Virus record (IMG/VR): IMGVR_UViG_3300001335_000606
DNA length: 64,000 bases
Direction: 5' to 3' (one strand)
DNA from: an uncultured virus (IMG/VR IMGVR_UViG_3300001335_000606)
Lineage: Duplodnaviria > Heunggongvirae > Uroviricota > Caudoviricetes
Under the pieces are notes generated by a model. The model ran no database searches and was not told the origin of the DNA. It saw only the letters and a list, made by a program, of their open reading frames with translations. Numbering within the stretch: the first letter of the stretch is position 1; every line of letters begins with the position of its first letter. Shown here piece after piece: positions 56,853 through 59,447 of this stretch. A program made the translations under genes and the position numbers.

Positions 56853-56927
56853 TGGCACCCCTAGCCGGAATCGAACCGACATAGGCGGGACTAGAATCCG
56901 CCGTACTGACCATTGTACGATAGGGGC
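56853..56927 (-). tRNA. Amber suppressor tRNA (anticodon CUA) with tRNA-Glu-like body
   Basis: GCCCCTA-TC-GTAC-AATGGTCA-GTAC-G-GCGGA-TT CTA GT-CCCGC-CTAT-GTCGG-TTCGATT-CCGGC-TAGGGGT-G-CCA. Confidence 0.9.
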
Positions 56928-57176
56928 AAATTAATTTGGGGAGAAGAATGCATCTTGACATTTTTGACACATTCCACTAATTTTAAATTCTCTCCTGGAA
57001 CAATCGTCTCTAAAGCTTTCTGGATGAACCTTTTCACCACAAATAGGACAGAATCCGTTCTTTTTTAGTTCGACCTCTTTCTCGAACCCTAATGATTTCA
57101 TGATGCTTTCATTCATAGTAACCTCACTTGTTTTTAGTTAATCATATTATAACTACTGAAAAAGAAAGTTTTGGTA

Positions 57177-57779
57177 TTATTTTTCCAAATTTTCCTCTTC
57201 TTGACTCATAGTAACGGCCATCAGATCTGCTGAGTGTGCCATCCTTACTAAAAGAGATTGCTTTTGGGCTGCACTATAAGAATTTTTTACCATAGGATCA
57301 ATTACAGAGCCAATTTCAAATCCTCCCATATGCCACCTTATTGCTAACATTTCTTCTTGTGTAAGTTCGATGCACTTGTTTAAAAGATAAACGGATTTTT
57401 CTCCATGACCTAAAGGAAACTTATCATTAATTATCCATCCCGGCTTAGATTGCCATCTGTTGCTTTCGTCTTTATACCATTGTTCCTTTGGTTCATAAAT
57501 ATCAATTTTACATAAATCATGTCCAAAACCAACAATAAATAAAGTTTCTTCAGAATATGGGTTAATTAACAATTTATTAAGCTCTTTCAATGCTAGAAAA
57601 ACCTTTTTGGAATGTTCGTATAGTCCACCTTCTTTTGCATCATGGTGTCCTCTTGCAGCTGGGGCATAAAAATAATCTGTCCCTACTAAATATTCGAAAA
57701 GTTTCGCTACGTCCCTTTTAAATTCTATTTTTTCGGCAATAGAAACCATATCTTCAAAATTTTGTTTCGTAACCGACAT
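57177..57779 (-). CDS. HD-domain phosphohydrolase
   Basis: APAA..HH...GGL.EHS, HDLCK, GHGEKS, AIRWHMG, H.AD. Confidence 0.85.
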   Translation of the reverse strand: MSVTKQNFEDMVSIAEKIEFKRDVAKLFEYLVGTDYFYAPAARGHHDAKEGGLYEHSKKVFLALKELNKLLINPYSEETLFIVGFGHDLCKIDIYEPKEQWYKDESNRWQSKPGWIINDKFPLGHGEKSVYLLNKCIELTQEEMLAIRWHMGGFEIGSVIDPMVKNSYSAAQKQSLLVRMAHSADLMAVTMSQEEENLEK

Positions 57780-58079
57780 ATTAGATTTCCTCCACGATAT
57801 AGTTCGCATTTTTTAAAAATTCTATCATTATATTAACAAATTCCATGGGGCTACTATCAATCTCATGAAAATATGAAACGACATGTTTTTCACCATTCGG
57901 TAACGACATCATAAACTCATAATCAACATCTAAACCAAAGTTGAAACGATATAATAAATGCTGTTTATGATATAATTCTACAACTTTGCCTGTGTTATTA
58001 ACAAACATTCCTATTTTTTCATTAAATTCAATTACTGATATCTTCTAATATTCTTCTAATGTTTCTTCAATTCGTATTT

Positions 58080-59447
58080 TCATAATACTTCCTTCTTAAT
58101 TGTACTGTGTAATAATATTCGATTTATAAGAGTTATTAAAGTATCTAAATCAACAATAGACAAGAGATTTTCGGCTGGTAAACCTTTTTTCTTTCCAGTT
58201 ATTGCGACTCTAATCAATTCATGTATTGTTTTATTATTATAACCCACATCTTTAAAATCCCATATAAATTTTTCCGACTCTCTTAATGTAAGATATATAC
58301 TATTATAATAGGTAGAATTGCAAAACTTACTAATAAGATCCAACAACATTTTGAAAAACTTAAGTTCTTCAGAATTTTGGCACTCGTAAAGTTGACCAAA
58401 CATAATATGACGATCAATCTCTTCAATTAATTCATTGATGCCAATACCAGATTGATAAATTGGTAACAAATTATGCAATTGGTTAATATCCAAATTATTA
58501 TAATTTTTAAAATATTGATTTATACCTTCTTCTGTTTTGGAATGTTTAAGGTTTAATTTTCTAAGCAGTTTTTCATCATAATGAGAAGCATTATTACTAA
58601 GTTTATTAATGTCAAATTGCTTTAACAAATCATATGTAGTTAAGAAGTTGGTAGAAAGTTTGGAATGATCCCAACCCAATAATGCTATATAATTAAGAAT
58701 TGAACAAGGCAAATATTTCTTTAATAAATCTTCAACAGCAAAATGGTTTTCTCGTTTGGATAATTTGTTCCCTTTACTATCCAAAATTAAAGGCAAATGA
58801 TAGAATCTAGGCATTTCCCAACCTAATGATGAATATAGAATTTTATGGTATGGAAGTGAAGACAACCACTCATCTCCACGAAATATATCTGTAATACCCA
58901 TTAGATGGTCATCCACCACACTTGCTAAATGATAGGTTGGTGTACTATCCCTCTTTAATAACACGATATCATATAATTCTTTACCACTGAACGGTATACT
59001 TGCCTGCCTGAGCTCATCATAACAATGGATTGTTTCGTTTTGATTAATTTTTAATTTAATTGAAAATCCATTTTTCAATTCTGATTGTTGTTCAATAAAG
59101 GATTTATTTCTGCATTTACATTCTTCTTGAGAATCTTTGGGACAAGTACAAAAATATGCATGTTGATATGCTACTAATAACAGAGCATACATAGAGTAGT
59201 AAGGTAAACGCTTAGATTGTTGATAGAATTCATCCCAAGATAATCCAAACAGTTCCAGAGTATGCTTGATATCGGAAACATAATTTTCTTGGCTTCGGAC
59301 TTGATCTGTATCTTCAATCCGTAAAATAAATTTACCATTATTTTGTTTAGCATACAACCAACTAAACAAGGCAATTCTTAAATTACCTATATGCATTTTG
59401 CCGGTTGGGCTCGGCGCAAAACGGCAGATTACTTGATCTTTACTCAT
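58080..59447 (-). CDS. gltX: Glutamyl-tRNA synthetase (TAG-free)
   Basis: RFAPSPTG.MHIGN (HIGH), LRIEDTD, PTYHLASVVDDH, RGDEW, KLSKR (KMSKS), C-terminal RVAITG anticodon-domain motif. Confidence 0.95.
   Translation of the reverse strand: MSKDQVICRFAPSPTGKMHIGNLRIALFSWLYAKQNNGKFILRIEDTDQVRSQENYVSDIKHTLELFGLSWDEFYQQSKRLPYYSMYALLLVAYQHAYFCTCPKDSQEECKCRNKSFIEQQSELKNGFSIKLKINQNETIHCYDELRQASIPFSGKELYDIVLLKRDSTPTYHLASVVDDHLMGITDIFRGDEWLSSLPYHKILYSSLGWEMPRFYHLPLILDSKGNKLSKRENHFAVEDLLKKYLPCSILNYIALLGWDHSKLSTNFLTTYDLLKQFDINKLSNNASHYDEKLLRKLNLKHSKTEEGINQYFKNYNNLDINQLHNLLPIYQSGIGINELIEEIDRHIMFGQLYECQNSEELKFFKMLLDLISKFCNSTYYNSIYLTLRESEKFIWDFKDVGYNNKTIHELIRVAITGKKKGLPAENLLSIVDLDTLITLINRILLHSTIKKEVL

Follow-up and report, generated by a model that had tools for sequence, protein, structure and literature searches.

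In phages whose genetic code differs from that of their host, the accessible part of the work of Borges et al. describes only two changes, of TAG into a glutamine codon and of TGA into a tryptophan codon, and states that phage synthetases predicted to charge suppressor tRNAs are rarely found (10.1101/2021.08.26.457843). The same text describes for the Jade phages a 'code change module', in which recoding of TGA is associated with a suppressor tRNA, a tryptophanyl-tRNA synthetase and release factor 1 (RF1) (10.1101/2021.08.26.457843). For crAss-like phages, proteomics has validated the glutamine meaning of TAG (PMC9523058, as far as its text was available); for phAss-1 it was argued from TerL alignments, and the available sections of that report record no specific synthetase gene (PMC10607447). 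Isotype predictions for 180 phage suppressor tRNAs (tRNA-Sup) in the theta-ribozyme paper comprise Gln, Trp, Ile and Tyr but not Glu in the portion available (PMC10879173); TAG is taken to be Gln in a 2026 survey of jumbo phages, in the part accessible to us. A subtree of phage glutamyl-tRNA synthetases (GluRS) and UAG reassignment in some genomes were both described by Al-Shayeb et al. 2020, again in the accessible sections (PMC7162821). Here we examine a stretch of 64,000 nucleotides from an uncultured Caudoviricetes virus (IMG/VR record IMGVR_UViG_3300001335_000606), referred to as the window, in which a GluRS gene (gltX) is followed by a tRNA with the amber-decoding anticodon CUA, tRNA(CUA). 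The analysis strongly supports a reading of TAG as glutamate, and not glutamine, in this phage, which would be a meaning different from that reported for other recoded phages.

The preliminary description of this DNA had placed a CCA-ending tRNA(CUA) downstream of a full-length gltX on the same strand. ARAGORN, Rfam and TIGR00464 confirmed this arrangement, in which the tRNA begins 1,152 bases past the gltX stop codon:

58080-59447, minus strand: gltX, bacterial-type glutamyl-tRNA synthetase of 455 amino acids without an in-frame TAG (TIGR00464, PF00749).
56853-56927, minus strand: tRNA(CUA), amber decoder of 75 nucleotides with an encoded CCA (ARAGORN and Rfam).

TAG is a sense codon in a subset of the genes of this phage. 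When open reading frames (ORFs) of at least 100 amino acids were counted from stop to stop on the minus strand of the window, they covered 30,468 nucleotides under the standard code, 51,024 nucleotides with TAG coding and 37,845 nucleotides with TGA coding. Individual genes contain 8-17 in-frame TAG codons and, when these are translated, match Pfam families end to end. The codon is used heavily in about a quarter of genes: among 91 ORFs that do not overlap and reach at least 80 amino acids, 21 have three or more TAGs, which make up 3.48% of their codons, and 51 have none. This TAG-free set takes in gltX as well as the HD-domain hydrolase and the 511-residue RNA-binding protein that lie beside tRNA(CUA). 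With TAG read as sense, as the ORF call assumes, the ORFs end with TAA (65) or TGA (26).

That UAG means Glu and not Gln had been proposed beforehand, and this reading held in refutable tests based on composition, invariant-Glu columns, likelihood ranking and ortholog substitutions. Glutamate makes up 5.06% of residues in the 21 genes with at least three TAGs as against 7.75% in the 51 TAG-free genes, a deficit of 2.69 points that is the largest of any residue, while TAG itself rises by 3.48 points. Glutamine is not depleted, with 2.95% in the TAG-rich and 2.38% in the TAG-free genes. The following genes were informative about individual TAG codons:

926-2353, minus strand: flavin adenine dinucleotide (FAD)-dependent protein with 10 in-frame TAGs, of which those at 1592-1594, 1460-1462 and 1058-1060 fall on family-invariant Glu columns.
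62058-63080, minus strand: 5-hydroxymethyldeoxyuridine (5-hmdU) DNA kinase with 15 in-frame TAGs, whose TAG columns mostly align to Glu of homologs.
24057-24521, minus strand: deoxycytidine monophosphate (dCMP) deaminase with five in-frame TAGs, compared with solved structures.
41960-42391, minus strand: protein of 143 amino acids containing H-TAG-M-G-H (TAG at 42146-42148), a motif that becomes HExxH with Glu at the TAG.

The FAD-dependent protein, with X at each TAG, was searched against 1.84 billion representatives (746 hits), and the 134 homologs of at least 250 amino acids out of the best 150 of these hits were aligned. At TAG columns 254, 298 and 432 the homologs have E in 131, 129 and 131 cases, respectively. 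Among the 57 columns that are at least 80% conserved, all three Glu columns correspond to TAG in the window, and the sole Gln column to CAA; apart from one glycine column considered below, the remaining TAG columns are variable (K, E, D, N). A Codetta-like likelihood ranking, in which substitution frequencies were learned from the alignments being scored, placed E first for the FAD family (9 TAG columns; Q lower by 7.4 ln units), for the 5-hmdU kinase family (13 TAG columns; Q lower by 2.5 ln units) and for the combined 22 columns (D, K and Q lower by 7.4, 8.3 and 9.8 ln units). The database copy of the window kinase (P0001, window 62058-63080) has Q written at every TAG in the style of table 15, and the kinase ranking may lean towards Q because this copy, and probably recoded relatives, are stored in that way.

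Substitutions between phages gave a similar picture. In a site-by-site comparison with orthologs on six related contigs, hereafter sister contigs, the commonest partner of a window TAG was E at nine of 23 sites, D at four and Q at none, and opposite 49 TAG sites of the sisters the window residue was E at 17 and Q at two. For comparison, Glu codons of the window pair with E at 50 of 123 ortholog sites; of the 70 sites with Gln codons, 24 have Q as partner and 7 have E. TAG sites behave as Glu sites in these cross-phage orthologs. Solved structures contribute a smaller sample: the 18 TAG cells of the dCMP deaminase are aligned with E (4), D (4), V (4), R (2) and Y, F, T and I (1 each), with no Q, and the four TAG cells aligned with structure 3nlc face E, E, G and A. 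Two motifs are suggestive. The 143-residue protein has a weak SprT-like match (E 0.009), and its HExxH reading remains a motif-level hint because a homolog search matched nothing beyond the protein itself. A second ADP-ribosyltransferase-like gene (51168-52076) encodes E-N-TAG-V-L-F, which resembles ENELLF of the first; from this likeness and from what the motif usually looks like, ENXVLF may be the ExE motif, although this second protein had no PDB match and BLASTP against the first gave no alignment of the ExE region.

Several TAG-rich genes are of interest in their own right. Two homing-endonuclease-like genes (DUF559, NUMOD3, MTES_1575) lie within the tRNA array at 43084-43989 and 44914-45654 on the minus strand; one has 17 TAGs in 301 codons, the maximum of the window, and the other 9 in 246. 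The ADP-ribosyltransferase-like genes at 60895-61647 and 51168-52076, both on the minus strand, have 14 and 16 TAGs, and the product of the former matches PF03496 (2.5e-21) and can be aligned with Vip2 and with C3-like enzymes. A TAG-rich DNA-modification cluster, also on the minus strand, comprises the 5-hmdU DNA kinase and the dCMP deaminase together with entries at 22657-24054 and 27184-28680, its members including a DNA methylase-like protein and a glycosyltransferase; this cluster suggests that the phage DNA contains hypermodified thymidine.

The synthetase itself was recognized along nearly its whole length. The product of gltX matches TIGR00464 (gltX_bact) with 324.2 bits (curated equivalog cutoff 289.95), residues 6-443 lying on positions 2-465 of the 470-position profile, and its catalytic domain matches PF00749 at 6.2e-72. 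Both class I motifs are present, PSPTGKMHIGN corresponding to PSPTGHLHVGG, and KLSKR to PLSKR/KISKR, of solved GluRS; these we take to be the HIGH-type and KMSKS-type motifs. The best PDB sequence match is GluRS2 of T. maritima (3akz, 3afh, 3al0; 4.6e-59, ~30% identity). An AlphaFold2 (AF2) model had a predicted local distance difference test score (pLDDT) of 91.1, and Foldseek aligned it with template modelling (TM) scores of 0.76 to the non-discriminating GluRS (ND-GluRS) of T. maritima (3afh) and 0.77 to T. thermophilus GluRS (1j09). The matches to 3afh, 4gri and 1j09 (TM 0.75-0.77 over 473-490 columns) span the whole chain including the helical C-terminal domains; sequence alignments to 1j09 end near residue 332.

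The anticodon-binding domain is where this protein departs from its bacterial relatives. PF19269 was not recognized in gltX (E 0.13, 13 bits against a cutoff of 23.6) and was found in only two of 31 clade members scanned with E values up to 10, at best at E 0.031. Among the best 120 of 7,981 GluRS relatives, the nearest 34 (P0019-P0052; 38-52% identical, 292-490 amino acids, on contigs of up to 262 kb) have PF00749 only, whereas the next 86 (P0053-P0138), which are bacterial, all have PF19269 besides PF00749. A FastTree phylogeny of 118 sequences of at least 400 amino acids, whose outgroup consists only of this best-scoring bacterial set, recovered 32 clade members as monophyletic (support 1.0), the stem measuring 0.52 substitutions per site. 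Judged by sequence, gltX belongs to a phage-only GluRS clade whose anticodon-binding domain has diverged past what Pfam recognizes. Four nearly invariant cysteines (CxCx7CxC) occur in the connective region of the clade, at about residues 100-112 of the window protein. Some bacterial GluRS bind zinc in the connective region.

A single-protein scan of IMG/VR found no close relative of gltX, and a profile scan of the same database found 74 gltX loci of at most 41% identity, none of which (0/74) has a suppressor tRNA; the low-GC phage loci among these non-clade genes have a normal standard-code density of 0.71-1.3. GenBank phage GluRS are likewise at most 41% identical to gltX, and species genomes yielded only bacterial GluRS of 30-40% identity.

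The genes around gltX and tRNA(CUA) are as follows:

57781-58083, minus strand: small ORF of 100 amino acids with one TAG near its start (75 amino acids from 58008 under the standard code), of no known family.
57177-57809, minus strand: HD-domain metal-dependent phosphohydrolase of 210 amino acids, TAG-free (phrog_28876, 1.1e-30).
56931-57116, minus strand: small ORF of 61 amino acids (phrog_19722, 1.6e-10).
55095-56630, minus strand: RNA-binding protein with DUF2828/DUF7788, 511 amino acids, TAG-free (phrog_850, 4.4e-103, and Pfam).

The HD hydrolase also matches HD-domain clusters of an atlas, at 0.98 by features and with a TM of 0.89 by structure. A metagenome scan with the clade member P0025 returned 12 loci, six of which (L075-L080, the sister contigs) contain clade gltX genes; the six non-clade loci were GC-rich and bacterial (L081-L084, L086) or short with 48% G+C (L085). 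tRNAs of the sister contigs were called with ARAGORN, and with Rfam on L075, L077, L079 and L080 only. The contigs with a tRNA(CUA), and the one that is truncated, are these:

L075: gltX at 3101-4459 and tRNA(CUA) (anticodon cta) at 5412-5488, downstream on the same strand.
L076: gltX at 10001-11308 and tRNA(CUA) (cta) at 13033-13109, downstream on the same strand; a tmRNA and a tRNA-Met come next, in agreement with the window.
L079: gltX at 5640-6950 and tRNA(CUA) (cta) at 11305-11379, downstream on the same strand.
L078: gltX present, the contig ending inside the gene and having no flank.

Of the four sister contigs with enough flank, three preserve the gene order gltX, HD hydrolase, tRNA(CUA). 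An HD gene follows gltX in all five that extend past it (L075, L076, L077, L079, L080), and the 511-residue RNA-binding protein has a counterpart downstream of the tRNA in L075, L076 and L079. All seven gltX genes, those of the window and the six sisters, are TAG-free; the HD gene lacks TAG in the window and in L079 and contains four TAGs in each of four sisters. This linkage is kept across phages whose GluRS are only 44-47% identical, and gltX, the HD gene and tRNA(CUA) are co-inherited. ORF density in the five sisters that extend past gltX rises from 0.30-0.61 under the standard code to 0.78-1.09 with TAG coding, the gain in L080 being no larger than that with TGA coding. Clade GluRS was found only in TAG-recoded contexts. 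The proposal that gltX and tRNA(CUA) form a unit is therefore strengthened by the conserved linkage, the distinct GluRS clade and the TAG-free gltX; charging of the tRNA by the phage GluRS is what we infer from these.

For the isotype of the tRNA, the other tRNAs of the phage serve as comparison:

29549-29625, minus strand: tRNA-Glu(CUC), with G1-U72 and A73 (ARAGORN).
31710-31786, minus strand: tRNA-Glu(UUC), with G1-U72 and A73 (ARAGORN).
42396-42469, minus strand: tRNA-Gln(UUG), with A1-U72 and G73 (ARAGORN).

The Rfam tRNA model matched tRNA(CUA) with 51.9 bits (gathering score 29, E 6.7e-9); ARAGORN labelled it 'Pyl', because of the anticodon cta only. Its acceptor stem is GCCCCUA/UAGGGGU (G1-U72, then C2-G71 to C5-G68), followed by U8 and C9 and a D-stem GUAC/GUAC with U11-A24. 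The anticodon arm is GCGGA-UUCUAGU-CCCGC, with G37 and an A31-C39 mismatch, the variable region is the 4-nt CUAU, and the discriminator base is G73 before the encoded CCA.

The preliminary description had seen a Glu-type body in this tRNA, and the details that it cited (U8-C9, U11-A24, the 4-nt variable region) were correctly read; their diagnostic value is uneven. U8-C9 is non-specific. The variable region is only weakly diagnostic of tRNA-Glu because that of the phage tRNA-Gln also has 4 nt; it is 4 nt in L079 (UGAU) as well and 5 nt in L075 and L076. The pair U11-A24 is present in the window tRNA, in the three sister suppressors and in E. coli gltT; at 13-22 the sisters have U13-G22 like gltT and the window copy has C13-G22. 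The identity set of E. coli tRNA-Glu was reportedly defined by Sekine et al. in 1996. G73 does agree with E. coli tRNA-Glu, as had been noted, but E. coli tRNA-Gln has it too and the two tRNA-Glu of the phage have A73. The likeness of the acceptor stem and its G1-U72 pair to tRNA-Glu(CUC) is likewise as read; G1-U72, however, occurs in 10 of the 36 window tRNAs and tRNA-Leu(UAG) has the same GCCCC/GGGGU stem, and we rejected both features as a mark of Glu since they are common among the tRNAs of this phage.

The clearer evidence came from the sister copies. The four suppressor tRNAs are homologous, with a compensatory change between C4-G69 and G4-C69. The three sisters share the D-stem GUCU/GGAC with E. 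coli tRNA-Glu (gltT), that of E. coli tRNA-Gln being GCCA/AGGC, and have A36-A37-A38 in the loop. In blastn, the L079 copy was matched best over its full length by genes annotated as tRNA-Glu in T5-like phages (75-77% identity, 100% coverage). All four suppressors have G1-U72 and hence are without a U1-A72 first pair, the feature of tRNA-Gln that, according to Nakamura et al. in 2006, is said to mark it as a GatCAB substrate. Comparison of these copies indicates that the tRNA(CUA) family derives from a Glu-type body, of which the sisters retain a clear signature and the window copy a weak one.

We propose that these elements act as a switch. Early in infection the host ribosome would translate the TAG-free genes, gltX among them, whose mRNA is in the standard code. 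The phage GluRS would then load the Glu-type tRNA(CUA) with glutamate, and the G1-U72 end would guard Glu-tRNA(CUA) from amidation to Gln. Glu-tRNA(CUA) would out-compete RF1, so that TAG-containing genes are read through as Glu; the genes switched on would be those for DNA-modification enzymes and ADP-ribosyltransferases and the homing-endonuclease-like genes. Normal bacterial GluRS reads a YUC anticodon, and because of this dependence tRNA(CUA) should be a poor substrate for a GluRS of the host type. As in a code-change module, the CUA anticodon matches the recoded TAG, the amino acid of the synthetase is the new meaning of the codon (Glu), gltX is TAG-free and the linkage is kept in L075, L076 and L079. 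The timing follows the model proposed for recoded phages in the accessible part of Borges et al. (10.1101/2021.08.26.457843). We consider that the phage GluRS probably charges tRNA(CUA), and we rate the full chain, from charging to read-through of TAG genes as Glu, as somewhat likely. A further proposal, that the clade has re-tooled its anticodon-binding domain to accept CUA or to ignore the anticodon and so forms a self-contained amber-to-glutamate pair within standard-code bacteria, is more tentative, and we hold it to be possible rather than probable.

A number of observations weigh against this reading. With regard to the codon, one TAG of the FAD family falls where glycine is conserved (126 of 134 homologs), ADP-ribosyltransferase alignments have Q at two TAG cells in a comparison that is variable overall and in which E is commonest, and the HMUDK motif column NCFC-TAG-FSKY has Q in four of 17 homologs and E in 13. 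Those four may be TAGs written as Q by the database, as with P0001. With regard to the machinery, a Pfam scan found no RF2, RF1 antagonist, GlnRS or GatCAB gene among the ORFs of the 64-kb window; the ordinary tRNA-Glu(UUC) and tRNA-Glu(CUC) could alone justify a GluRS gene; and no tRNA(CUA) lies beside gltX in L077 (1.7 kb downstream) or in L080 (4.3 kb, with only a tRNA-Met). Finally, the window tRNA(CUA) is the least canonical of the four, with its D-stem GUAC/GUAC, with G37 and U38 where A37 and A38 would be canonical, and with the A31-C39 mismatch, in place of which the minimum free energy (MFE) fold gives a 9-nt loop. Two sister copies score 63.6 and 70.2 bits as against its 51.9; tRNA-Glu(CUC), at 68% identity, is its nearest tRNA in the window, yet tRNA-Arg(CCU) reaches 64%; and it has G73 where the two tRNA-Glu of the phage and the three sister suppressors have A73. 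A blastn search with it against phage records matched no tRNA-Glu, giving only weak partial matches to tRNA-Trp, tRNA-Leu and the CUA 'tRNA-OTHER' of Bxz1-like mycobacteriophages, which hold no isotype information. An anticodon-arm pattern search of IMG/VR gave no matches.

The alternative that best survives these observations accepts TAG as Glu through tRNA(CUA) and assigns the charging to the GluRS of the host. The phage gltX would then be a translation booster for tRNA-Glu(UUC/CUC), and its position beside the suppressor would merely reflect a tRNA-rich neighbourhood. Many huge phages do have gltX without a suppressor, as did every one of the 74 IMG/VR loci; this phage has two ordinary tRNA-Glu to be served, and the L077 and L080 arrangements fit such a role. 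The restriction of clade GluRS to TAG-recoded contexts and the persistence of the linkage at 44-47% identity speak against it, as do an anticodon-binding domain past Pfam detection, unlike that of all 86 listed bacterial GluRS, and the poor substrate that a CUA tRNA is expected to be for a YUC-dependent host enzyme. We regard host charging as unlikely, though as the most serious competitor to charging by the phage enzyme.

A considerably less probable explanation is that the window tRNA(CUA) is a decaying copy and that the functional amber decoder is encoded in another part of the genome, within the remaining ~120 kb. This could account for G37 and U38 in place of the A37-A38 of the three sisters, the A31-C39 mismatch, the changed D-stem and the lowest Rfam score of the suppressor family. 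The cloverleaf and CCA end are intact, though, the D-stem changes are compensatory (12-23 from C-G to A-U, 13-22 from U-G to C-G) and the gene sits at its conserved syntenic position. G37 and the A31-C39 mismatch are not disqualifying, because the phage tolerates A36-G37 in its tRNA-Phe(GAA) and the same A-C mismatched stem GCGGA/CCCGC in its tRNA-Thr(UGU) at 36494. Least credible of all is ordinary code 15, with a non-discriminating GluRS charging Glu and host GatCAB amidating it to Gln: it can draw on TAG=Gln being the only amber reassignment for phages in the accessible parts of the literature searched, on the best PDB match being a transamidosome enzyme, the non-discriminating GluRS of T. 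maritima, and on a G73 shared with the phage tRNA-Gln, but it is contradicted by the 9.8 ln units separating Q from E, by a Q partner at none of the 23 window TAG sites, by TAG at three family-invariant Glu positions with CAA at the invariant Gln, by undepleted Q in TAG-rich genes and by a tRNA(CUA) without U1-A72.

The window is part of a large phage of at least 184 kb, the gltX product being recorded on a contig of 184,376 bp in a protein collection search. Its G+C content is ~33% and its long ORFs all lie on the minus strand, as do all 36 tRNA genes and the single transfer-messenger RNA (tmRNA) gene called by ARAGORN. Apart from tRNA(CUA) there are 35 ordinary tRNAs, which cover all 20 amino acids and, with the exception of tRNA-Trp, have an encoded CCA end. 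Peptide deformylase, an Rnl2-type RNA ligase, dCMP deaminase, the 5-hmdU DNA kinase and the two ADP-ribosyltransferase-like genes are also encoded in the window. The Rnl2-type ligase (14039-15061) and a cREC_REC cyclic-phosphate processing receiver gene (16352-16741), both on the minus strand and TAG-poor, are likely to form a tRNA-repair set. The tmRNA (52293-52638, minus strand; Rfam 64.2 bits) has the tag peptide GETQLKAA, and that of sister contig L076 (16792-17146), at the syntenic place, has GNEYKQAA. Two minus-strand tRNAs are well above usual lengths, tRNA-Thr(UGU) at 36494-36586 (93 nt) and tRNA-Cys(GCA) at 40142-40228 (87 nt), which points to long variable arms or to inserts; another tRNA-Thr(UGU), of normal size, lies at 32607. 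One tRNA-Ile (33333-33410, minus strand) has a genomically encoded UAU anticodon, and a tRNA-Ile(GAU) lies at 41806. At least 99% of sampled words from window positions 55000-60000 are present in four sequencing runs from two studies, labelled as aquatic, freshwater and freshwater-sediment metagenomes; these runs are not independent support because all are flagged as possible sources.

If the GluRS and tRNA(CUA) do form such a self-contained pair, this would be a virus-borne switch of the genetic code with a meaning unrecorded for any phage or bacterium in the literature searched. A full-text search, which did not cover the synthetase list of Borges et al. (Table S2), found neither TAG/UAG as Glu in a phage or bacterium nor a phage GluRS tied to a suppressor. 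Its matches for 'TAG to glu' were glutamine cases and ciliate codes. Annotation tools fix TAG as Q (table 15), and the database copies of the window proteins carry Q at every TAG; if TAG is Glu, proteins of this lineage are mistranslated in public catalogues at ~3.5% of positions in affected genes, catalytic glutamates included. The locus would also provide the enzyme that has been missing from amber code switches, the link between a phage synthetase and a suppressor having so far been made, in the accessible part of the literature, only for TGA and Trp. The clade GluRS and the syntenic CUA tRNAs make charging of a suppressor tRNA during a viral code switch directly testable, and if the proposal is true the natural GluRS/tRNA(CUA) pair would be a candidate orthogonal pair for code expansion.

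In some ciliates UAG and UAA encode Glu in the nuclear code (NCBI table 30). The meaning of UAG is thus the same as that proposed here, but the ciliate codes are eukaryotic, genome-wide and accompanied by an altered eRF1, and are not a virus-borne switch in a standard-code host. With respect to its enzyme, the phage gltX resembles the non-discriminating GluRS of T. maritima in the five-domain bacterial architecture and in fold (best match, TM 0.76) and differs from it in a C-terminal domain unrecognized by PF19269; in T. maritima the enzyme supplies GatCAB for the synthesis of Gln-tRNA, and the evidence for TAG as Glu argues otherwise for the phage protein. As in the huge phages described in the available sections of PMC7162821, a large phage carries many tRNAs and a gltX, yet the GluRS there fall among host (Bacteroidetes) sequences or near them and are not tied to amber in those sections, whereas here a separate, long-stemmed clade is linked to a CUA tRNA. 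The code 15 phages (crAss-like, Lak and phAss-1, with tRNA-Sup(CUA)) share with this one the in-frame TAGs in a subset of genes, the phage CUA tRNA and the split between TAG-free and TAG-rich genes, and differ in the meaning of TAG, which is Gln there and Glu here. Close in design is the Jade module, in which a phage synthetase likewise stands beside a suppressor tRNA, both under the standard code, as a predicted switch for recoded-stop genes; the Jade components, however, are TGA to Trp, TrpRS and RF1, whereas those of this locus are TAG to Glu and GluRS, with no release factor in the window. The locus may therefore be described as a variant of the known phage code switch that combines a new codon meaning, TAG=Glu, with a new synthetase partner, GluRS.

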